Shown: positions 1-9,765 of the stretch, in pieces
Layout: every line of letters begins with the position of its first letter
Position numbering within the stretch: position 1 is the stretch's first letter
IMG/VR virus record: IMGVR_UViG_2609459769_000004
Origin: a virus
Taxonomy: Duplodnaviria; Heunggongvirae; Uroviricota; Caudoviricetes
Length of the DNA: 9,765 nt
Direction: 5' to 3' (one strand)
Notes under the pieces: generated by a model
Told to the model about the DNA's origin: nothing
Databases searched by the model: none
What the model saw: the letters and a program-made list of their open reading frames with translations, nothing else
Translations under genes and position numbers: made by a program

Positions 1-60
1 CGGTCTTGAAAACCGGCGACCCGAAAGGGTTCCAGAGTTCGAATCTCTGCGCTTCCGCCA
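1..60 (+). tRNA. serT: 3' 60 nt of tRNA-Ser (anticodon UGA); 5' part lies outside the window
   Basis: Sequence CGGTCTTGAAAACCGG...GGTTCCAGAGTTCGAATCTCTGCGCTTCCGCCA has anticodon loop CU-UGA-AA, a long variable arm, T-arm GGTTCGAATC and a 3' CCA. It matches my recollection of E. coli tRNA-Ser(UGA). Confidence 0.9.
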
Positions 61-69
61 AACAATCAA

Positions 70-102
70 GGGGTTACCAAATGGTAGCCCCTTTCTTTTT
101 TT
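70..102 (+). terminator. Rho-independent terminator of the tRNA gene
   Basis: 9-bp stem GGGGTTACC / GGTAGCCCC (one G-U pair), AAAT loop, then T-tract TTTCTTTTTTT. Confidence 0.75.
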
Positions 103-107
103 GCTCT

Positions 108-137
108 TAGTATACACTTGGTATACTAATTGGTATA
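108..137. repeat. Short repeat cluster just downstream of the tRNA: 8-bp inverted repeat plus direct repeats
   Basis: TAGTATAC (108-115) and GTATACTA (121-128) are a perfect inverted repeat with a 5-nt spacer. TTGGTATA occurs at 118-125 and 130-137, and the complement ATACCA at 152-157. Confidence 0.5.
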
Positions 138-638
138 TTTAGCTCAACACATACCAGATAGATTTTTCTCTTTATGATTTATCGCTATACCGATGAATTA
201 TGAATAACCCCAATCCATGCATGACGTGTGGTGCCTGTTGTGCATTTTCCGCGTCTCTTTTTACTGGGCAGAAGCTGACGATGCTGGCGGAAAGGTTCCG
301 GTCAGTCTCACTGAGCAAATATCTCCTTTTCATCGCTGTATGCGCGGCACCAATCAGAAAAATCCCCGATGTGTCGCTCTTGCCGGCCCCCCCCCGGAGA
401 AAACGCATATTGCTCTGTTTACAAAAACCGTCCACATGCAGGGAATTCGCAATGTCCGGCGAAAATGGCATCGTAAATGAAGCATCTAATCGCGCACGGG
501 AAAAATATGGATTTCCAAAAATCTGAATATTCTCCGCCGTGCAAAAATGCGAACAACATCACTTCACTAATCAACCTGACATGGCATACTTAGCACGCTA
601 ACTATGATAACAAACTAATACCCTAAAACTCATGGTTC

Positions 639-668
639 CGGGACTGGTCGTGGTCCCGTTTTTTTTAT
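639..668 (+). terminator. Rho-independent terminator, plus-strand orientation
   Basis: Stem CGGGAC (639-644) / GTCCCG (653-658), 8-nt loop, then T8 (659-666). It sits immediately 3' of the stop of the convergent minus-strand gene at 669. Confidence 0.65.
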
Positions 669-1364
669 TCAGCCTGCAGGCCATCCAACAACGTAACTGC
701 GGATCGCCTTCAGCTCTGTCAGCGCCTCAACCTCTGCTTTCATCTGCAACTGCCGTGTATTAATCTCCACCCCCTTCGCAAACATCGCCTGCTCTGTCGC
801 ATCCGACAGGGCTATGATGTCTGCCGCCGTCACCGGCACCACATTATTATCCCCGTCGGTCCAGGCAAAACCTTCCGGAAGACGGTTATTCTCTGCCATC
901 AGGCGTGTCATGCTTATCCTGGACAACGTCTTCTTGCCGTAATCCCAGTTCCTTCCGTTGAATTCCATCATGTATTCCATATTCTCCTGCACATCACGCC
1001 AGATATTAATCTCTTCCCTTTTCGCCGCTTTTGCCGCTTCCAGTACTGCTTCCGTGGCGACAAAGGCACTCACACTTCCGTACGTTCCTGCTGTCAGCCC
1101 AGACCACAATGCTTTTCCGTGTTCTGTATTATCCGTTTCCGTTGCAGTATACGGCAGCCATACCTGTTCCCCTTTTTCATTCACCGCGTCTTCAAACTGC
1201 ACCTCACAGTTTATCCCGCCATATTCGTTGCTGGCTGCATTTCGTACTGCAAGAATCTCTTTTCCCTTATCCACCATGACCTCCTCTATGATATGCGCTG
1301 AAATAATCCTGCCTGTCTGATACCCGGAGATGATGTCCATAGCATCGGACCACATGCACGCCAC
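669..1364 (-). CDS. Phage tail-fibre assembly protein (Tfa / P2 gpG-like); start uncertain (ATG at 1277 has SD GAGGAGG, the longest ORF starts at 1364)
   Basis: C-terminal region ...[27 protein letters not shown]...[17 protein letters not shown] resembles Tfa/gpG C-termini (PENFTW-like motif, ending in a WP motif). It lies directly downstream of the tail-fibre fragment, as in stf-tfa pairs. Confidence 0.5.
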
Positions 1365-1771
1365 GTGCCCGGTAAACGGGTCTCCCCCACATTACCGGAA
1401 GCAACCAGGGGAGTACCATTCGAAAGGCAGCATGCAGACAGTGATGACCCGGCAACAGTTGAGCCAGGGGCACGGTCCCCCGAATAATGCGTCTGGTAAT
1501 ACGCCGCAAGAACAAAAGAACCGACACCAAACAGCCCGCTGTCAGGGCTTCCGGATGGTCCCCGTGGTCCTGCCGGGCCTGCAGCTCCCGTATCCCCTTT
1601 CGGTCCCCGTGGTCCTGCCGGGCCTGCAGCTCCCGCATCCCCTTTAGGTCCCTGAGGACCTGCCGGCCCTGCAGCTCCCGTATTCGCGCCAGTTCTCCAC
1701 CTTCTGACCGTGCATACCATCAGGGTAAAAATTTGCATCCTGTACGCCTGCCGCCGCCAGCTTCTGACCAA
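1286..1771 (-). pseudogene. 5'-truncated phage tail-fibre gene fragment with collagen-like repeats and a distal C-terminal domain
   Basis: Minus-strand frame encodes [43 protein letters not shown] followed by ...[20 protein letters not shown], a tail-fibre-tip-like GTWRxxG motif. There is no plausible N-terminus: the in-frame sequence upstream is interrupted by a stop at 1784 and overlaps the preceding ORF. Confidence 0.55.
1557..1690. repeat. 45-bp tandem repeat, about 3 copies, encoding collagen-like Gly-X-Y triplets on the minus strand
   Basis: GGTCCCCGTGGTCCTGCCGGGCCTGCAGCTCCCGTATCCCCTTTC at 1557-1601, repeated at 1602-1646 with 2 substitutions, and a diverged partial copy at 1647-1690. 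Confidence 0.85.
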
Positions 1772-2039
1772 TCGCCTTTATCATTACTGGCGCAAGATAT
1801 CCGGCCCTGAATATGCGCACGGATTTTCTGCCTTCCGGCACAATTTGCAGCTTATCCAGTTCGGATAACTGCTGCTCCCCAAGCCACACAGGAGGCTCAT
1901 TATCTCCGGCCATACGCGCGTCATGTTCCTGCCATTGTTTTGCGTGTGACCAGGCATCACTACCCGCAAAAATAATGACTTCTGTTTCTTTGTGTTTTAT
2001 GCCGCGTGACTGCTGTTTTACGTTCGGTGCCAGTTTCAT
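1644..2039 (-). CDS. Hypothetical protein, 131 aa; probably the 5' fragment of a larger gene that reads into the collagen-repeat DNA
   Basis: ATGA start/stop overlap with the upstream ORF and SD AGGGG 6 nt upstream. The last ~15 codons overlap the collagen repeat in another frame and look like read-through (…[10 protein letters not shown]). Confidence 0.4.
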
Positions 2040-2335
2040 TTTTTACCCCTGAATCCGTTAATCATGGTTTTCAGCTTCTGGATGTTTGCCCGTGCCCTGG
2101 CGTTGCTGGTGGGCACGTTATGCGGCGCGGTCTGTACCAGAGAAAAATCACGCCGGAACTGATAAACAGGCATCACGCAATCATATTCGTAACCTTCACG
2201 GCGGTAGGTTACGCGCCGTTCTTCCACGCCCTTAATCATTACCGTGCCGCCGTACTGGTCGCGGTAAATATCACCGCGCGTAAATTTAGGGTGAGTGTTG
2301 CCACTGGCAGTTAAGCCAGAATATTTAAGTTTCAT
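2036..2335 (-). CDS. Small hypothetical phage protein, 99 aa
   Basis: SD GGAGA 5 nt upstream of the ATG, and ATGA overlap with the next gene. Protein MKLKYSGLTASGNTHPKF...RRVTYRREGYEYDCVMPVYQF. Confidence 0.5.
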   Translation of the reverse strand: MKLKYSGLTASGNTHPKFTRGDIYRDQYGGTVMIKGVEERRVTYRREGYEYDCVMPVYQFRRDFSLVQTAPHNVPTSNARARANIQKLKTMINGFRGKK

Positions 2336-2340
2336 TATTT

Positions 2341-2574
2341 TTATTCTCCGGTGTGCTGTTCTTTATATCTGTCGTGCAATAGATCTATTTCTTGCAGTTC
2401 CATTATTACAGGCTCAAGAAGCGTTATTAATGCCGTGGCAATTCTTGATTTTTGTTTGTCGCATTCATTGTCGCCAAGTGTTTCAAGCCATATGCGCAAT
2501 ATTTCCTGCATGTTTTCACTGTGAGAAAGTGCAAGAAATGCGCGGTCTATTGTTTCGAGGTAAATATCACGCAT
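2341..2574 (-). CDS. Small hypothetical protein, 77 aa
   Basis: SD GAGGA 9 nt upstream; start overlaps the upstream gene's stop by 8 nt. Confidence 0.45.
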   Translation of the reverse strand: MRDIYLETIDRAFLALSHSENMQEILRIWLETLGDNECDKQKSRIATALITLLEPVIMELQEIDLLHDRYKEQHTGE

Positions 2575-2800
2575 GGCTTACATCCTCAGGAAATTTTCTT
2601 CTGTAACGCGCCTCTGCCACATATTCCGCATAATCGGCGGCGATATTCAGTACATCAAGTCCCGTTGATTTATATTCTTTCGTGGAAAGTAAGAAAAAAG
2701 CCGCTCTAATAAGTTCTGGCATTGACGAAAGCGCATCAGCCGCATCATCAGGAACGCCGGAAAATTCCTGTTTCAGGGAATTAAAACGATCATCACGCAT
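2567..2800 (-). CDS. Small hypothetical protein, 77 aa (MRDDRFNSLKQEF...); alternative start at 2812
   Basis: Start lies 2 nt downstream of a G8 tract (on the coding strand) and overlaps the upstream gene's stop, suggesting translational coupling. Confidence 0.4.
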   Translation of the reverse strand: MRDDRFNSLKQEFSGVPDDAADALSSMPELIRAAFFLLSTKEYKSTGLDVLNIAADYAEYVAEARYRRKFPEDVSHA

Positions 2801-3014
2801 AACCCCCCCCATTTTCACAATCAGCAACAAGAATATTTTTAGCGTCATTCAGTGACCGCGTTGCGGTGTATCGGATACATTCCAGGGCGAATAGTGTGTA
2901 TTCTTCCCTTTCTTCCTTTTGTGCAAGCTCTGCTGTGCATTCAATATCAATAAGCGCGTGCATCAGCGTAGTGAGTGCGGCGGCGGCTGCGTCCGGTGTG
3001 GTTTTATTGCACAT
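2793..3014 (-). CDS. Small hypothetical protein, 73 aa (MCNKTTPDAAAAALTT...); the longest ORF extends to 3068
   Basis: SD GGAGGGG immediately upstream of the ATG at 3014. The C-terminus ...ENGGGYA is encoded across the G8 homopolymer. Confidence 0.4.
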   Translation of the reverse strand: MCNKTTPDAAAAALTTLMHALIDIECTAELAQKEEREEYTLFALECIRYTATRSLNDAKNILVADCENGGGYA

Positions 3015-3234
3015 GTACCCCTCCGCATTTTTTTTCGTTAGAAATAAGCGTTCTTCTTTCCTGTTCATCGATCAGGAATACGCAGACCTCACCGCTAAGG
3101 CGTTTAAGTAAGCCGATGATTGCCCCTGATTCGCTGTCGGTCATCATGCCAGGGTAATCCTCTGCCAGTGCGCAAATAACTTCGATTTGGTGGGCGCGTT
3201 CTGCTGCCTGTTGTAGTGTGATTTCCTGGCTCAT
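3004..3234 (-). CDS. Small hypothetical protein, 76 aa (MSQEITLQQAAERAHQIEV...)
   Basis: ATG overlaps the stop of the Icd-like gene (ATGA), consistent with translational coupling. Confidence 0.45.
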   Translation of the reverse strand: MSQEITLQQAAERAHQIEVICALAEDYPGMMTDSESGAIIGLLKRLSGEVCVFLIDEQERRTLISNEKKCGGVHVQ

Positions 3235-3425
3235 AAGCCTACCCCCTGGCGAATACGGGCGGCGAATACAGCAACACAACCGGACGGGCAACGGCTACGC
3301 GCTTCGCGTTCCGTCCAGGCGGTTACGTGGATGATTTGAGATTCTCCGGCACTTAGTGCCAGAAAACGCCACACAAAGGCAGTTTGTGTGTGCGCCAGAC
3401 GTGGGGTATGCTGTGTTCCAGCCAT
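3231..3425 (-). CDS. Icd-like small protein (host cell division inhibitor Icd-like family), 64 aa; first gene of the leftward operon
   Basis: SD AGGAG 8 nt upstream of the ATG. Protein MAGTQHTPRLAHTQTAFVWRFLALSAGESQIIHVTAWTEREARSRCPSGCVAVFAARIRQGVGL carries the T-E-R-E-A-R ... F-A-A-R motif I associate with Icd-like proteins of P4-like prophages (from memory). Confidence 0.5.
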   Translation of the reverse strand: MAGTQHTPRLAHTQTAFVWRFLALSAGESQIIHVTAWTEREARSRCPSGCVAVFAARIRQGVGL

Positions 3426-3612
3426 AATCGTTACTCCTGTTAACGGTTTGGTTAGACGCCCCGCTACTGCCGCAAACAGTTCGGGGCGTTGTCGTTTACA
3501 TCCTCTTACTGAGGTGTGATTTAAATTAAATTCAACTGAATCACAGGTCAAGTGTTTTTTGTGATTCTTTTTTGTGTATACTGAATCACATCTTTTGTTT
3601 AGGAGAATGCAC
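3426..3612. promoter_or_regulatory. Divergent control region between the Icd-like operon (leftward) and a regulator gene (rightward), with repeated operator-like motifs and a leader hairpin
   Basis: Four copies of GAATCACA / TGTGAT(T/C) in alternating orientation at 3515-3522, 3537-3545, 3560-3567 and 3582-3590, about 22 bp centre to centre. Candidate -10 TATACT at 3577-3582 for the plus promoter; candidate -35 TTGACC (complement of 3546-3551) for the minus promoter. Hairpin ACGCCCCG / CGGGGCGT at 3456-3489. Confidence 0.55.
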
Positions 3613-3918
3613 ATGGCAAAAAACACTATCAACGACAAATCAAAACAGATTTCAATTCGTATCCCACATGATGCTTTTGATGGCATGGAATCCGTAAAAC
3701 TGGACGGCGAAAGCAACGCCGGATTCATAGTAACCGCCATGCGCGGTGAAATCGCCCGCCGCCAGGCAGAAGGAAGCGGAGAAAACCTCCTGATTTCTTC
3801 GCTCAATGCACTGGCGCAGGTGGAAAAACTCGGAATCAAAGCCGCCGAGGAGATCGGGCAGCTCGTCACTGTCGCACGTGAAGAACTCCAGCGCCGCAAG
3901 ACTAAAGAACCAGAGTAA
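3613..3918 (+). CDS. Putative DNA-binding regulator, 101 aa, possibly ribbon-helix-helix
   Basis: SD AGGAG 7 nt upstream. N-terminus KQISIRIPHDAFDGMESVKL... fits a beta-strand-then-helix RHH pattern. Divergent from the operator array. Confidence 0.4.
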   Translation: MAKNTINDKSKQISIRIPHDAFDGMESVKLDGESNAGFIVTAMRGEIARRQAEGSGENLLISSLNALAQVEKLGIKAAEEIGQLVTVAREELQRRKTKEPE

Positions 3919-3975
3919 TCACCATCAGCGCCGTGGTGTAAGGTATTACGGCGCATTGCTATGCAGGACAACACA

Positions 3976-4149
3976 ATGACCGATAAAGAATTGACCAAAA
4001 CATTATCACCGGCACGGAAAAGACGGCGCAGAAAGATAGAGCATGAATCAGAAAGATTCGCGCCATGTGCTTTTGCCCTTGAGCAATTCCTTAAAGAGTA
4101 CAGGGAAAAGCGCTCATTGCAGGTATGGCAACGAACTGAACCAGACTGA
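3976..4149 (+). CDS. Small basic hypothetical protein, 57 aa (alternative start at 3961)
   Basis: AGGA 8 nt upstream of the ATG at 3976. Protein MTDKELTKTLSPARKRRRRKIEHESERF... Followed by the terminator at 4229. Confidence 0.35.
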   Translation: MTDKELTKTLSPARKRRRRKIEHESERFAPCAFALEQFLKEYREKRSLQVWQRTEPD

Positions 4150-4228
4150 TTGCATTGCCCACCAGCCGCAAATGTGGCATTGTTGGCAATGCTCATGCGT
4201 TGGGGATAAGGTATAGCTTGTGTCGAAT

Positions 4229-4256
4229 GGCCACCGTGACAGGTGGCCTTTGTTTT
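4229..4256 (+). terminator. Rho-independent terminator ending the rightward regulator operon
   Basis: Stem GGCCACC / GGTGGCC with GTGACA loop, followed by TTTGTTTT. Confidence 0.7.
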
Positions 4257-4541
4257 GCCCGTTATTTGGCAATTGTGGCGCTTCTTCACACAGTTGATAT
4301 AATTCCCCTGCACTGATCCAATTTTTTCGCAGCAGGTTAATTGTTCGCAAGGGCGCTCTGGTAACGGGGCGCTTTTTGTTTTTACCCACCAGCACAATAA
4401 AAATCTTTATTTTCCATTTTTATAAAATTTCATGCTTTCCGGACGACTGGTCATATGTCATTTTTTAGCAGAAGATTTTGCCTTGCTGGTGAGTAGCTTC
4501 TCGGTTAACACGATGTACCGTATAATCAGCACCGCGTGTGG

Positions 4542-5120
4542 TTACTGAATACGCTCACCAAAGTAAAACTCAGGCTGATATTCACGTATCAGCCTTTTTT
4601 CTTCTTCCTCCAGTTCACGTTTTTTGCGCTTACATGCCTGTAGCGCCCTCCCCTTCTCGCTGGCACTTATCTGGTATTGCTCTTTGCGGCGGGAAAAATC
4701 CTGTAATGCACCCCACGGGATACCATAAGCCCCCGTTTTTCTGATACCCGGTATCACATTTCTGAATACCCAGTTACTGAAACGATGGGCGAATGTGCCT
4801 TGCGTCGTTGCTTTGCGGCTACGGGCTATTAGTTTGTAGAAACCTGACTCAGAGATAATGCTCATATTCTGATTTCCTCCTGGGGTGTAAGTTAAATTTA
4901 CTCCCTTTTCATCATCATCAAGCATCTGCAACGCCGTACGCGAATTGGTCAGTTCCAGCGCAGCGCAGACATCCTTTGCAACAAACCACGGATCGCCGTT
5001 CAGATACACCACGCGAACGTTCACACCATCAAAGCGCAGAACGACCAGATCACGAAAATCACAGAATTTTTTTACATGACGTGCGTCACCCTTGCCCGTC
5101 ACGGCAATATTTTTATTCAT
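4542..5120 (-). CDS. Bro-N domain protein (antirepressor-like), 192 aa
   Basis: N-terminal ...FDGVNVRVVYLNGDPWFVAKDVCAALELTNSRTALQMLDDDEKGV matches the Bro-N signature. Charged coiled-coil-like C-terminus KRKKRELEEEEKRLIREY. SD GAGGT 9 nt upstream. Confidence 0.7.
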   Translation of the reverse strand: MNKNIAVTGKGDARHVKKFCDFRDLVVLRFDGVNVRVVYLNGDPWFVAKDVCAALELTNSRTALQMLDDDEKGVNLTYTPGGNQNMSIISESGFYKLIARSRKATTQGTFAHRFSNWVFRNVIPGIRKTGAYGIPWGALQDFSRRKEQYQISASEKGRALQACKRKKRELEEEEKRLIREYQPEFYFGERIQ

Positions 5121-5138
5121 TTCTTTTTTACCTCACAT

Positions 5139-5165
5139 ACAAAAAACCCCGCATTGCACGCGGGG
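5139..5165 (-). terminator. Rho-independent terminator after the integrase/AlpA genes
   Basis: Stem CCCCGC / GCGGGG with 7-nt loop; on the minus strand it is followed by TTTTTTGT. Confidence 0.6.
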
Positions 5166-5179
5166 TATGAAAGATATTA

Positions 5180-5383
5180 TTAGTGGGGATTGGCCTGTTC
5201 TCGTTGTTTATCTAACCATGCTTCTACATCTCTACGGTGCCAGGTATGTCGCCGTCCAATTCTGAACGGCTGAGGAAAACCATTATTCTCATCTTTCCAG
5301 AAATTGATGAATGCACTCATTGCTCCATATCGCAAGATTTTCATTACGTCTTTAGTAAATAAAATATCTTCATTGGTATTCAT
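5180..5383 (-). CDS. alpA: AlpA-family DNA-binding protein (excisionase/regulator-like), 67 aa; the longest ORF starts at 5404
   Basis: Strong SD GAGGAGG 8 nt upstream of the ATG at 5383. Sequence ...ILFTKDVMKILRYGAMSAFINFWKDENNGFPQPFRIGRRHTWHRRDVEAWL aligns in pattern with E. coli AlpA (HTH, FP, W-L tail). Confidence 0.65.
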   Translation of the reverse strand: MNTNEDILFTKDVMKILRYGAMSAFINFWKDENNGFPQPFRIGRRHTWHRRDVEAWLDKQREQANPH

Positions 5384-5396
5384 TTGCTGAACCTCC

Positions 5397-6635
5397 TCAA
5401 CCATTTACTACTCTTAAACCTTTCATACCACCGGATCTATTAATTACCCCTTTTCTCGCATCATCAAAAAAATCACCGACCCATTGCATCATGATCTTAC
5501 GCTGTTCTAGATAAGTAGTTCTATTATAAATATCTCTTATTTTATCACCACTTTTATGCGCCAATGCAGCCTCGATTACATCGGGGTTAAATCCCTCCTC
5601 ATTTAAAAGCGTACTCCACATTGAACGAAAACCATGTAACGTTACAATCCCTTTGAACTTGCTGGCAGCAATTGGGGTCTTGATAGTATTCCTCCCCATA
5701 GGCGCATCTTTTGTTCTGGAGGAAAAAAACACATAACGCCCTCTTTTTATTTCCTGCATTGTTCTGAGGATACTAATAGCCTGTGATGACAAGGGAACAA
5801 CATGTTCACGATGGCATTTCATTTTATGCGCGGGGATAATCCACAAGCCAGAATCAAAATCAATCTCTGACCACTCTGCTTTAATCGCCTCACCTGGCCT
5901 GACCATTGTCAATATCTGGAATAAAAGTGCATTATGAGCTATTTGATAGGTATGAGGCACACTATCCCACCAGCTCAGAAATTCAGGCAATCTTTCAACA
6001 GGTAGTGCTGCTAATGATTTATTTTTCTTTCCTGTGAATGCAGTCTTTATCTTAAGTAATGGATTTGTTTTCAATGCTCCACAATTTACAGCATAATTCA
6101 TAATTTCATTTAATCTTGATATTAATTTTTTTTGCAACGCATTCTTATCGGATACGGCATCCAGAGCATTAATAGCTACTGGTGCTGTAATTTTTTCTAT
6201 ACTGTACTTACCAAAGAAAGGAACAAGATATTTGTATACTTCATATTCGATATTATACAGCGTAGGTTTCCGCAATTCAGATCCCTTTTTAAAAGCGAAC
6301 CATGCATTAGCAATAGCTTCAAATGTCTGTAGATTTTTTAGTGACATCTCAATTTTACGATTTTTCTTCTCCGTCACTGGATCAACTCCACGTGCAATCA
6401 TTCGCCGAAGTTCATCACGTACTTCCCGTGCTTCCGCGAGTGAGAATTCAGGAAAACGTCCTATCGTGTATGTCTGCCGTTTCTTCGTTATCGGATGGCT
6501 ATAACGGAAACGCCACACTTTCCCACCGGCTTTACTCACATTCAGCAATAAACCGAACCCATCATAAACGGCATAGTCCTTTTCACGTGGTTTCATCCCC
6601 TTAACTTCAGTCACGGTTAATGGCTTTACCGACAT
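5397..6635 (-). CDS. int: Tyrosine site-specific integrase, P4-type, 412 aa
   Basis: N-terminal arm-binding-like region (LLLNVSKAGGKVWRFRY), C-terminal catalytic region HGFRSMWSTLL...GDKIRDIYNRTTYLEQRKIMMQW with candidate catalytic Tyr. SD GAGGG upstream. Confidence 0.9.
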   Translation of the reverse strand: MSVKPLTVTEVKGMKPREKDYAVYDGFGLLLNVSKAGGKVWRFRYSHPITKKRQTYTIGRFPEFSLAEAREVRDELRRMIARGVDPVTEKKNRKIEMSLKNLQTFEAIANAWFAFKKGSELRKPTLYNIEYEVYKYLVPFFGKYSIEKITAPVAINALDAVSDKNALQKKLISRLNEIMNYAVNCGALKTNPLLKIKTAFTGKKNKSLAALPVERLPEFLSWWDSVPHTYQIAHNALLFQILTMVRPGEAIKAEWSEIDFDSGLWIIPAHKMKCHREHVVPLSSQAISILRTMQEIKRGRYVFFSSRTKDAPMGRNTIKTPIAASKFKGIVTLHGFRSMWSTLLNEEGFNPDVIEAALAHKSGDKIRDIYNRTTYLEQRKIMMQWVGDFFDDARKGVINRSGGMKGLRVVNG

Positions 6636-6796
6636 CTATCGCCCTCATTTTTTAGTCCGTCATGTAGTCCATTCAAGCCAATAACAAGCGATAAACTAAC
6701 TCATTATCAAGCAAAGAGAGGAAACTCATAAAATCACAACTCATTGAAAAGACTATGAAACGACACCAGAACATACAAACAGGTAAGAAATGTACC
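6636..6796. promoter_or_regulatory. AT-rich integrase-upstream region with three direct AACTCAT repeats; candidate int promoter / attachment-arm region and junction with the truncated terminase
   Basis: AACTCAT(T/A) at 6698-6705, 6723-6730 and 6738-6746. The region lies between the integrase start (6635) and the premature end of the terminase ORF (6797). Confidence 0.3.
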
Positions 6797-7804
6797 CTAC
6801 ATCCAGAATGACGCAATCCGGGAATTTCGTGGCGTTCCGGTGATACTGCCGTCCGCCACCGCCCGTTCACCTTCACGAAGCCAGATCCCTTTGTTATTCA
6901 GTTCGCGTTTCTGCTCAGGGGCAATCAGCCCGCGACAATGCGGACACATCAGACGGGCAGCCTGACCGGCAGCCACAAAATCCGGGTTATTCCGGTATCC
7001 GGTCATGTTATCCATCACCGGCTGAAAATATTCCCCGCAGTGCGGACACGGCCAGTACCACCGGCGGCGGTCTCCCCGGTTATACAGTGACAGGATCCCC
7101 GTTGTTGGCGGTGCCTCATGTGCGCCGCCACAGCGCCATTTGGTGTCAGTGATATCCCGCCCCGGCGAACTCTCGACCAGGGTCATCCCCGAGGACATAA
7201 AGGTGGTGGTACGCTTTGATGCCAGGGTGAAGGCATCCCCTTCCCCGTCCACGTTTTCAGGGAAACGGTCATAATCCGTCAGCGCCACACGACGGTAATC
7301 CGAAGAAGAAAATACAGTGATCGACGGCCAGCCAATCTTCAGGAAGGAGCCGTCAAGAAACATTTTATCGTGGACGTTGTTGTCATTACGGGAAGGACTG
7401 AGGCGCTTGCTGACCTCCGGACTGTGGCGAAACGTTCTGGAAAGACGCGTTCTGGAATGCTCACGCGCCTTCGTCTCAGTCATCTGCACCACCAGCATAT
7501 CCGCCGGATCACAGATGATGCCGTACACAATCCAGCCATCAATCAGCCCTTCGGTTTTCCCGGTTCGCGCAGGTCCCACAAACACCACCGCGTCATATTC
7601 ACGGGCTGATAATGTATTAATGGGGTCAATCATATAGGGCGTCAGCGATGACTCCCACGGACCGGAAGTATTGGCTCCCCGTGGTACCCGCATATAACGC
7701 CTGATGGCTTCCGCTACTGGTAACCGGCTGGGTGGGCGAAACAGCGAGGCCACTTCGCGCCAGATATCGGATGCGCGGCTATGGCTCTCGTTCACCTGAT
7801 TCAC
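6797..7804 (-). pseudogene. Terminase large subunit (lambda gpA-like), N-terminal 335 aa only; truncated
   Basis: SLFRPP...VAEAIRRY, Walker-A-like GPARTGKTE, CPHCGEY...CPHC and NKGIWLREG parallel lambda gpA. Lambda gpA is about 640 aa; here the ORF ends at ...ASFWM* with no continuation. Confidence 0.85.
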
Positions 7805-8277
7805 ATATCGGCCTCATCACAACAGTCAATGACTGCCTTTTCCAGTGTATCGCGGATCTCATCAACCACAATCTGTACTTCATTCAGTTGTGATGCGGTC
7901 CACCCCCTGTCCCTCTCCAGCCGGTCAGGCCAGGTTTCCAGTACCTGAACTATCGCTTTCACCACGACAGAAAAGGACCGCCTGACATCACTGACTGGCA
8001 CAAGCTGAACAGTTTCATGCTGAAATTTAAGACGCTCGCGCTCGGACTGATACCATGCCTTCCGATCATGTGGGTTCATCTCTTCATCTTCGGAAGCCGG
8101 TGGTTTTTCCAGCAACGAAATAATCAAATCCGTCAGGAGATACATTTTTTTCTTTTCATTACTGCCTGGTGCAAGAGGAACATCCGCCATTCTGGCGGCA
8201 ACAGTCTGCCGGTGCAGACCTGAAAGGGCTGCCAGTTGATTAATATTTAACTTCATATTTTTCAGCTCGCCGTCCAT
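7801..8277 (-). CDS. Terminase small subunit (lambda Nu1-like), 158 aa
   Basis: N-terminal HTH-like LNINQLAALSGLHRQTVAARMAD parallels the start of lambda Nu1. SD GGAGGG 7 nt upstream. Stop overlaps the TerL start (ATGA). Start is about 187 bp from the putative cosN, as in lambda. Confidence 0.85.
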   Translation of the reverse strand: MDGELKNMKLNINQLAALSGLHRQTVAARMADVPLAPGSNEKKKMYLLTDLIISLLEKPPASEDEEMNPHDRKAWYQSERERLKFQHETVQLVPVSDVRRSFSVVVKAIVQVLETWPDRLERDRGWTASQLNEVQIVVDEIRDTLEKAVIDCCDEADM

Positions 8278-8289
8278 TCACATCCCTCC

Positions 8290-8490
8290 ACATAAACCGC
8301 TGAACAAAAGTGGCTCTTTTTTTGTAAAGAAATGCCGCCATATAAAGATGTCGAACAAAAATCAACCACAATCATCATCTTTTTAATGCTAAATACATTA
8401 AAAACAACAAGTTACGCTAATGATGATGATGACGATAAAATCACAAAAATGCGCCTTTTTCCGCGCCGTCCGCCCCGTGTTCAGGCCCAC
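8290..8490 (-). other. Lambda-like cos site region (cosN about 8464-8475, cosB towards Nu1)
   Basis: Minus-strand GGGCGGACGGCG resembles the lambda cohesive end GGGCGGCGACCT. Downstream CGTCAT...AACTTGTTGTTTTTAATGTATTTA parallels lambda CGTCATAACTTAATGTTTTTATTTA (recalled from memory). No ORF of 60 aa or more on the minus strand in this interval. Confidence 0.5.
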
Positions 8491-8729
8491 CCCACCAGGA
8501 GGACCCGCAAAAACGATAATGGTTATCATTTTCAATGTAGTCCGGTTTCTTCCACCATCGCACCGGACAGGCGACTATGAGGGGACAACGCCGCGCTCCG
8601 TTAACGCGGTAAACCCCGGTGTGTATCGTTTTTGATTATCCCCGCACACTCGCGCAGAGGAGTCTCCCTGTCGGGCTGCGGTCTCTGTTAATGAGGGAAT
8701 ACAGCGACGATACGGCGCATCAACAAAAC

Positions 8730-9197
8730 TTATTTCAGGCACTGAGTACGGATATATTCCTGCGCCCCTTCCAGTTGCTTGTGCATCGTCATCAGCCGCT
8801 CTCTGAGGGTGAAATAATCCCGTTCAGCGGTGTCTGCCAGTCGGGGGCCGGTTGCATTATCCACGCGGGCGGTGCCGGTGGCTTCACGCACGGGACCTGG
8901 ACAGGTGGCGTTGATACGCAGGCGCTTACGACCAGCGGCAACGTCAGCGCGAAGAGTTTCATTTTCAGCTCTCGCATCGGCTAATTCCCTCGAGTATTTT
9001 GCATCGAGCGCAGCAACATCACGCTGACGCATCTGCATGTCAGTAATTGCCGCGTTCGCCAGCTTCAGTTCTCTGACATTTTTGTCGCGCTGGGCTTTGT
9101 AGGTAATGGCGTTATCACGGTAATGATTCAGCCCCAGACTAAGCGCACCACAGGCCACCAGCATGACAATAATCACCACACACAGAACACGGTTCAT
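8730..9197 (-). CDS. Rz: Rz i-spanin, 155 aa
   Basis: [67 protein letters not shown]... is near-identical in pattern to lambda Rz, with an N-terminal TM segment. Confidence 0.9.
8792..8977 (-). CDS. Rz1: Rz1 o-spanin lipoprotein, 61 aa, embedded in the +1 frame of Rz
   Basis: [61 protein letters not shown] has a lipobox LVVSAC and proline-rich core matching lambda Rz1. Confidence 0.85.
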
Positions 9198-9198
9198 A

Positions 9199-9285
9199 TC
9201 ACCACCAACGGATTGCCCAGACCAGAACAGCAATGGCCACAATACGAATGGCAAATGCCATTGCCCGAATAAGTTCAGCACTCAT
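9199..9285 (-). CDS. Candidate 28-aa hydrophobic peptide immediately upstream of Rz
   Basis: ATG at 9285; [28 protein letters not shown]; stop TGA is 1 nt before the Rz ATG. No recognisable SD, so this may not be expressed. Confidence 0.2.
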
Positions 9286-9296
9286 CTTTTTAAAGT

Positions 9297-9547
9297 TCAC
9301 GATTTCAGCGCAATGACCAGTTTTGCCAGCCCATATAGCATCGGAGACACAGCAATACCAACAGCCACCCACTTAATAGCAAAAGCCAGCGCTCTGCTGA
9401 TGTCATCAGTCACTGTCACCCCAGCAGCCCCGACGAAGACAACATCACCCAGGCGAGGGACAGAAAAAGAGCAACCAGCATTAGTGAAAATGAAATACCG
9501 ACAATCACACACAGGACCTTTGCCGGCGTTATGAGTTTGTCTGACAT
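9297..9547 (-). pseudogene. Candidate holin-like small membrane protein, apparently frameshifted (two frames, two TM segments)
   Basis: Frame A: MSDKLITPAKVLCVIVGISFSLMLVALFLSLAWVMLSSSGLLG* (9547-9416). A second frame continues ...VTVTDDISRALAFAIKWVAVGIAVSPMLYGLAKLVIALKS* (to 9297). It sits in the position where lambdoid phages carry holin/endolysin genes. Confidence 0.3.
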
Positions 9548-9549
9548 AG

Positions 9550-9645
9550 CTACCCCTTAATTGCCACAATTAACTGGGATACTACCCATAAAAAAGGGAT
9601 GCTCCAGACCAGCAAAAATTTCCAGTTTGGTAATTGACTAATCAT
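9550..9645 (-). CDS. Candidate 31-aa hydrophobic peptide
   Basis: SD AGGGAG 7 nt upstream of the ATG at 9645. MISQLPNWKFLLVWSIPFLWVVSQLIVAIKG, with the stop 2 nt before the next ATG. Confidence 0.3.
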   Translation of the reverse strand: MISQLPNWKFLLVWSIPFLWVVSQLIVAIKG

Positions 9646-9716
9646 GAGTCGCAACTCCCTAATCAGTTTGCTAAAATCAATCAAGGCAGCCTCCCATAGC
9701 TTACTGCCATAAAAAC

Positions 9717-9760
9717 AAAACCCCGCTTGCTGCCAACAAACGGGGTTTTTACTTTTATTC
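9717..9760. terminator. Hairpin with flanking T/A tracts; likely bidirectional intrinsic terminator
   Basis: AAAACCCCG ... CGGGGTTTTT with an imperfect extended stem, followed by TTTTTACTTTTATT on the plus strand and preceded by AAAAACAAAA. Confidence 0.6.
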
Positions 9761-9765
9761 ACTTA

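Follow-up and report, generated by a model that had tools for sequence, protein, structure and literature searches.

Predicted single-helix membrane microproteins encoded between the endolysin and spanin genes of a lambdoid lysis cassette

Small membrane products encoded in phage lysis cassettes, among them LysA of P2, LydB, LydC and LydD of P1 and the antiholins lambda S107 and S21-71, are non-essential and are thought, or have been shown, to tune the timing of lysis. Hydrophobic single-helix inner-membrane peptides of 28–60 amino acids (aa) are also familiar as type I toxins (Hok, TisB, Ldr, Ibs and ZorO), some of which are prophage-borne. In phage Mu, a non-holin membrane-anchored protein encoded near the signal-anchor-release (SAR) endolysin as well as the spanins, the releasin gp25 (DUF2730), promotes release of the SAR endolysin (PMC9239132). 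Here we analysed a 9,765-nucleotide (nt) stretch of a caudoviricete IMG/VR record (IMGVR_UViG_2609459769_000004; hereafter the window, whose positions serve as coordinates throughout) and in particular the interval 9199–9645 next to the spanin genes Rz and Rz1. Four tightly packed, co-oriented cistrons (the open reading frames ORF1, ORF2, ORF3' and ORF4') encode predicted single-helix inner-membrane microproteins between the endolysin gene (R) and Rz/Rz1. We tentatively read the interval as an accessory module of a lambdoid pinholin/SAR-endolysin/spanin cassette of the Shiga toxin (Stx) phage type, which may tune a membrane step of lysis.

Like the genes described here, P2 lysA sits between the endolysin gene and the spanin-equivalent lysB/lysC. 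The present peptides have no detectable sequence similarity to LysA, the Lyd proteins or the antiholins, however, and with 28–60 aa and one helix they are much smaller than LysA, which has several transmembrane (TM) domains, or than class I/II holin–antiholin pairs. Each ORF has a predicted TM domain, as a holin does, but in place of the highly charged, hydrophilic C-terminal domain of a holin the C-terminal flanks comprise 2–14 residues with 0–1 basic, and the window ORFs measure 28–44 aa against the ~60–150 aa typical of holins. The likeness to Mu is that the SAR endolysin used has a short cytoplasmic N-terminus containing basic residues, and both gp25 and the microproteins are essentially without a periplasmic domain. 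Whereas the anionic cytoplasmic domain of gp25 spans ~72 residues, the corresponding segments of the microproteins span 4–25, are net neutral or basic and have no Pfam match; the releasin arrangement of an N-terminal TM domain with a ~70-aa anionic DUF2730 domain was not found in them. Mu, moreover, lacks a holin, whereas intact relatives of the present cassette have a pinholin. Since no sequence or domain match links the peptides to LysA, the Lyd proteins, the antiholins or gp25, we claim analogy, not membership.

A preliminary description of the window had reported that no endolysin was present where the lysis cassette should be, and had offered decay of that cassette as one explanation. The gene seems to be missing only because the window stops 75 bp before it. 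Intact and 177 aa long, a Phage_lysozyme gene (PF00959) ends 75 bp past window base 9765 in two contigs that match the window at 100% over the 8969 bp covered (L230, GCA_009824785.1 WUJA01000003.1; L231, GCA_011317395.1 WUMY01000003.1), both of which were reached via the truncated TerL protein encoded in the window. The same gene is intact in E. coli 55989 (99.8% identical over 1466 bp) and E. coli O111:H21 15A (99.9%); no complete E. coli genome matched the window over its full length. The N-terminus of this lysozyme, MNTKIKYGLSAAVLALIAIGAPAP, is of the SAR type, and its short cytoplasmic part has basic residues (MNTKIKYG...). Farther upstream, both 55989 and 15A encode a class II, S21-like holin (PF04971), which, together with the SAR-domain lysozyme and the spanins, makes up the pinholin/SAR-endolysin cassette typical of Stx phages (PMC8136144). 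Among 226 IMG/VR loci with an ORF2 homologue, almost all of those whose upstream sequence suffices also have a lysozyme gene there, and a class II holin is encoded upstream in these loci as well; outside this set, the defective CP-1639 prophage is an exception.

The prophage is nevertheless defective, but elsewhere: the pinholin gene is deleted upstream of the window and terL is interrupted inside it. Relative to 55989, the two window-identical contigs keep the lysozyme and have lost 1326 bp (L230 ~1868–1870 and L231 ~1732–1734, corresponding to 6543–7868 of the 55989 locus L004), a deletion that takes the pinholin gene together with a YdfR pseudogene and the 3' end of a SASA/DUF6645 esterase gene and leaves the SAR endolysin, the microprotein genes and Rz/Rz1 untouched; tblastn detected no holin. 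Between holin and endolysin of the window-type cassette, a 104-aa hypothetical gene (L004 7950–8264 in 55989) runs on the strand opposite to the lysis genes and is kept in both contigs. It is very improbable that the frames of the interval are the non-coding debris of a holin/endolysin deletion. No endolysin is visible within the window alone and the prophage is indeed defective, both of which fit such decay, but the endolysin is intact just outside and the lost pinholin lay ~1.2 kb farther upstream, outside the interval. In the present defective prophage the microprotein module is a passenger.

ORF2 begins 2 nt past the ORF1 stop behind a Shine–Dalgarno sequence (AAGGGG). The preliminary description had joined this frame to the next as a two-frame, holin-like ORF of about 84 aa, broken by a frameshift near 9416–9430. 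There is no such frameshift: the two frames are ORF2 and, after it, a shortened member of a 60-aa family to which ORF2 is unrelated. Of 21 unique DNA variants, 20 retain the ORF2 stop after 43 codons, phages in which Rz follows directly among them; the 43-aa length is kept in most of ~100 ORF2 protein clusters; and 20 unique variants contain no in-frame stop at all, whereas the remaining two sense frames contain 81 and 9. No relative carries an ORF2–ORF3 fusion in a single frame, as a frameshifted or decayed holin would lead one to expect, and the single 65-aa ORF2 variant is a read-through into Rz. The gene is free-standing (43–44 aa), with Rz directly next, in VT2-Sakai, phiON-2011 (annotated ORF49), Stx1a phages and 933W, again at odds with decay. 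In 933W it is unannotated within a 153-bp gap between ant and Rz (L233 3425–3577), and the VT2-Sakai reference record likewise has no annotation in an ant–Rz gap of ~150 bp (L006 2483–2632).

One homologue has been reported as translated. XECs191, identical to the VT2-Sakai peptide and 70% identical to ORF2 over 43 aa, is among 465 'novel small gene' candidates of E. coli O157:H7 Sakai (Huecker et al. 2017, PMC5597208). In lysogeny broth (LB) it gave 30 reads per kilobase per million (RPKM) in RNA-seq and 12.6 RPKM in ribosome profiling (RIBOseq), with a ribosomal coverage value (RCV) of 0.43 and a coverage of 0.55; it passed the RIBOseq thresholds in LB only, one of three conditions, and was predicted to be an inner-membrane protein with one TM helix (PMC5597208). 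That study did not discuss its position in a lysis cassette, the distribution of the family or the linkage to Rz, and assigned no function (PMC5597208). Taken together with the purifying selection set out below, the RIBOseq signal also speaks against decay.

Two other readings of this segment were considered. A similarity between ORF2 and the N-terminal TM helix of Rz (VLCV...MLVA), which would make ORF2 a duplicate of that helix, was not significant (p 0.05–0.09 in composition-preserving shuffles), BLASTP returned nothing, and the idea is unsupported. An antisense ORF of 123 aa (9163–9534, + strand) was rejected: antisense ORFs vary in extent and start in every architecture, none is conserved across the architectures compared, and where one antisense frame does show a low pN/pS, constraint acting on the sense frame is the probable cause (pN/pS being the ratio of non-synonymous to synonymous changes per site).

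ORF1 combines an N-terminal cytoplasmic segment, IDFSKLIRELRLM, with one TM helix, as judged by hydropathy, and its TTG start lies 5 nt downstream of a GGGAGG Shine–Dalgarno sequence. A longer, 70-aa frame from a GTG (9550–9762), listed in some records as 'TPR_REGION domain-containing', has as its first third the terminator hairpin, and phrog_6632 (E=1e-12) aligns its profile positions 2–43 of 45 with residues 28–69 only. This frame was therefore rejected and the 44-aa form preferred. A different, 45-aa variant directly before Rz in CP-1639 keeps an ORF1-like N-terminal segment and ends in RWW.

ORF3' starts at a GTG 2 nt past the ORF2 stop and corresponds to the last 38 codons of a family that elsewhere encodes 48–60 aa (MGKYKRILLRLTMKNGLELKAPVTDD...). 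One cassette (locus L213) holds a full-length ORF3 before ORF2 and a truncated copy after it, which shows a duplication by recombination. ORF4' is a short paralogue of the same family (phrog_4493, E=3.8e-6); both ORF3' and ORF4' match phrog_4493 and phrog_3246, and an intermediate form between the ORF3 family and ORF4' also ends in RWW (P0277). In its annotated 33-aa form (P0019), ORF4' begins at a GTG that overlaps the ORF3' stop (GTGA), and its own last codons (RWW) form the Rz ribosome-binding site, with the stop 1 nt before the Rz ATG. An alternative 33-aa ATG frame (9305–9406, MTSAERW...) was discarded: it has no PHROG match, and the non-ORF3 frames hold stops in relatives and show pN/pS of ~0.9 and 1.8. 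In the window, ORF3' and ORF4' are N-terminally shortened, presumably recombinant copies, which may be less functional or non-functional and may well be duplicates in decay even where the families as such have a function; their truncation fits the decay reading.

Patterns of nucleotide change show purifying selection on ORF1, ORF2 and the ORF3 family and mark all three as genuine protein-coding genes. In-frame pN/pS values are 0.19–0.38 across the three, against 0.7–3.0 off-frame. For the TM codons of ORF1 the value is ~0.21 in frame versus 0.68 and 1.9 off-frame, and for ORF2 0.37 versus 0.79 and 1.37. The ORF3 family ranges from 0.19 to 0.26: its 60-aa form gives 0.19 within E. coli and 0.21 between E. 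coli and Salmonella (synonymous differences 23/46, non-synonymous 14/137, Fisher p = 6e-8), with 1.0 and 3.0 off-frame. Bona fide lysis genes of these loci span a range that takes in the microprotein values: 0.11 for the endolysin, 0.13 for the pinholin, 0.32 for the SAR domain and 0.54 for Rz codons 1–70. On the comparative sequence data, the decay reading is already refuted for ORF1 and ORF2.

Each peptide has a single hydrophobic segment, with a best 19-residue Kyte–Doolittle window of 1.9–2.9 per ORF, and lysine and arginine are richer N-terminal to the helix in ORF1, ORF2 and the 60-aa ORF3 form; this basic bias suggests an N-in/C-out topology. AlphaFold2 (AF2) models ORF2 as one continuous helix (residues 3–38; predicted local distance difference test, pLDDT, 84) and the 60-aa ORF3 form as a short N-terminal helix followed by a long TM helix at residues 25–59 (pLDDT ~90 over the helix). 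The TM topology check that the preliminary description had proposed thus yields one predicted TM helix per peptide. No match to the microproteins was found in Pfam, NCBIfam, PADLOC, Rfam or PDB sequences, and all matching PHROGs are annotated 'unknown function', none being in the lysis category. Databases already list the sequences, either as 'hypothetical protein' or within PHROGs of unknown function, one homologue being listed as a translated small ORF; the literature searched by peptide strings and topic returned no functional study of the peptides.

The interval genes, the spanin genes and the terminator all lie on the minus strand (Table 1). The small hydrophobic frames, the intact Rz and Rz1 and the terminator of the preliminary description all stand, the frames as four consecutive ORFs. 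Both spanin ORFs are complete and the Rz1 lipobox cysteine is present (...VVSAC), as expected of a two-component spanin. The terminator hairpin is strong (ΔG -25 kcal/mol, z = -5.4, with 0 of 200 shuffles equally stable), and in E. coli and Salmonella relatives R is followed by the same hairpin. Its bidirectionality, which had been asserted, is only potential, resting on an A-run and a T-run on either side. Along the five cistrons from ORF1 to Rz the stop-to-start distances are 2, 2, 11 (or a 4-nt GTGA overlap) and 1 nt, so that the gaps down to Rz, read directly in the sequence, amount to 0–11 nt. A plausible Shine–Dalgarno sequence precedes each cistron except at the ORF4' ATG, where it is weak (AAAAAG).

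Table 1. Coordinates of the lysis-region features in the 9,765-nt window.
Feature	Position	Strand	Description
Intrinsic terminator	9707..9755, stem 9749-9717 then T-run	-	Hairpin fold; just downstream of the off-window SAR endolysin gene
ORF1	9550..9684	-	44 aa from TTG 9684; alternative ATG 9645 (9550-9645) gives 31 aa; phrog_6632
ORF2	9416..9547	-	43-aa predicted single-helix membrane microprotein; phrog_4906, E=4.5e-21
ORF3'	9297..9413	-	38 aa, GTG start; N-terminally shortened; phrog_1115/3246/4493, E=3e-24
ORF4'	9199..9300	-	28 aa from ATG 9285 (9199-9285), or 33 aa from GTG 9300
Rz (i-spanin)	8730..9197	-	155 aa, intact; PF03245 E=2e-51; phrog_13
Rz1 (o-spanin lipoprotein)	8792..8977	-	61 aa, inside Rz in +1 frame; PF06085 E=4e-21; phrog_3198

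Homologues of ORF2 occur in 1702 of 5426 complete E. coli genomes (31%), at 4602 places and with up to 11 per genome, and in 281 phage records, mostly of Stx phages. No member of the ORF2 family was found outside Escherichia and Shigella; the ORF3 family extends to E. marmotae and Salmonella. Three main architectures recur: holin–R–ORF3–ORF2–Rz, holin–R–ORF1–ORF2–ORF3'–ORF4'–Rz (the window type) and holin–R–ant–ORF2–Rz. In Salmonella the order is Q, a holin (PF16080), an R21-like SAR lysozyme, a terminator and an ORF3-family gene, with Rz 10 nt on. The order SAR endolysin, terminator, microprotein, Rz is therefore common to E. coli and Salmonella despite the different holin family. Viable phages with the module include 933W, VT2-Sakai, phiON-2011 and PhiR5_1; far from being unconserved debris in intact relatives, the frames are conserved genes that such phages carry. 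In Salmonella enterica CP030203.1, a 29-aa hydrophobic ORF, MICFVAAFMLACDGRSGWGWFLLVGLIVM, overlaps the SAR endolysin stop (ATGA) upstream of the terminator (L235 2723–2812), and may be another lysis-cassette microprotein.

Constant across all arrangements is a microprotein gene that lies downstream of the SAR endolysin and ends 1–10 nt before the Rz start, its last codons serving as the Rz Shine–Dalgarno sequence (GGTGGTGA, GGGGTGA...). From this one could argue that the small ORFs are cis-acting leaders: once insertions and a terminator had split Rz from R, a short ORF would have been kept mainly to bring ribosomes to Rz, its peptide having little or no function. We regard this as improbable, given that selection on amino acids spans the whole TM helix and not just the 3' end, that length and start codon are conserved, that two to four tandem ORFs exceed what coupling needs, and that the ORF3 family is conserved even away from Rz (R–ORF3–ORF2–Rz).

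Under the accessory-module reading, the microprotein genes would have no promoter of their own and would be transcribed with the late operon, Q-antiterminated polymerase from the late promoter reading through the terminator after R. Translation would be coupled from cistron to cistron down to Rz, and the peptides would insert N-in/C-out into the inner membrane. There they could tune a membrane step of lysis, for which pinholin triggering, SAR-endolysin release and spanin function are candidates. The preliminary description had suggested, as its second option, retained membrane-active peptides with domesticated functions. This option fits better, since conserved single-helix membrane microproteins are indeed what the interval is predicted to encode, but they are a normal accessory part of many lambdoid lysis cassettes and do not stand in for holin or endolysin; of domestication there is no sign.

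In a different role, the microproteins would be moron-type cargo that occupies a permissive R–Rz insertion site and is produced while the prophage is repressed, either benefiting the lysogen or acting as a prophage addiction element; superinfection exclusion, membrane-stress modulation and type-I-toxin-like peptides are possible forms of it. The gap does hold other cargo (ant), bor lies just after Rz in 933W, and the terminator insulates the module from R. The module is 100% intact in a defective prophage that lacks the pinholin and an intact terL, ORF2 homologues reach 11 copies in one genome, and the XECs191 RIBOseq signal was obtained without induction, although spontaneous induction in enterohaemorrhagic E. 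coli (EHEC) cultures could explain a signal that low. In size and hydrophobicity the peptides match type I toxins, being small hydrophobic membrane peptides. A dedicated promoter, an antisense RNA and a stand-alone locus, which such toxins have, were not found here by promoter-like sequence or Rfam family, and the genes seem instead to form an operon coupled to Rz. Upstream of ORF1 the coding strand showed no promoter-like site, and neither PADLOC nor Rfam gave a match. The sole antisense promoter-like site (9541–9570, + strand; CTGACA-18-CACAAT with TG) lies opposite the ORF1/ORF2 junction and is directed at the potentially bidirectional terminator; with 1 such site found versus 2.1 expected, it does not exceed chance, and it cannot be general because other architectures lack ORF1. 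The apparent translational coupling of the cistrons to Rz likewise argues against moron-type cargo, which we consider rather unlikely.

Several observations weigh against the accessory-module reading itself. For phages lambda and 21, S, R and Rz/Rz1 are sufficient for lysis, which means that the module cannot be essential. Because the R–Rz gap takes unrelated cargo such as ant, position alone is no proof of a role in lysis, and no similarity to any holin, antiholin or releasin family was found in PHROG, Pfam or NCBIfam. ORF3' and ORF4' are truncated, and ORF4 variants are too few to show selection; the pairwise pN/pS values are drawn from related, non-independent sequences. The XECs191 signal is modest, came from uninduced cultures and met the thresholds in one of three conditions (PMC5597208). 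For every peptide the proposed link to lysis is drawn by inference.

Beyond the lysis region, the window carries further features. On the minus strand, terL (6797–7804) is cut short at 335 aa, and after it, within 1–6796, come a P4-type tyrosine integrase (5397–6635), a Bro-N protein (4542–5120), small ORFs and a DUF4222 protein (2036–2335). In sister contigs (L227–L232) the block that interrupts terL ends with a D5_N/DUF5906/Pox_D5 primase, and it looks like a satellite-like integrative element that has entered a lambdoid prophage inside its terminase gene. Exactly this truncated TerL occurs in 196 blocks of the assembly collection, and the insertion is thus widespread. A 45-bp tandem repeat at 1557–1683 (2.8 copies, 91% matches) encodes a collagen-like Gly-X-Y repeat in a minus-strand ORF (1286–1771) that adjoins a DUF4376 tail-fibre-like ORF (669–1364). 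Between Rz and a DUF1441 small-terminase-like gene (7801–8277), ~450 bp (8278–8729) are without a convincing ORF and contain an inverted repeat at ~8541–8570; it is at this position that lambdoid phages carry cos.

The lysis cassette without an endolysin, as originally posed, is an ordinary edge artefact, and what remains is a modest, concrete lead: three conserved, apparently translated families of membrane microproteins that a large share of E. coli lambdoid prophages encode in their lysis cassettes. A bolder proposal, and a doubtful one, is that the spanin-proximal microproteins (the ORF2 family and its partners) are an unrecognised component class of pinholin/SAR-endolysin systems, whose TM contacts with the pinholin, the SAR domain or the Rz anchor would set lysis timing. 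Our interest in the module is moderate, because it sits unannotated in reference Shiga toxin phages. Were the proposal true, the timing and amount of Shiga toxin release would also be influenced, 933W and VT2-Sakai each carrying an unannotated copy directly upstream of Rz; and since it takes phage-mediated lysis to release Stx, a factor that modulates when Stx phages lyse their host would be of practical interest.

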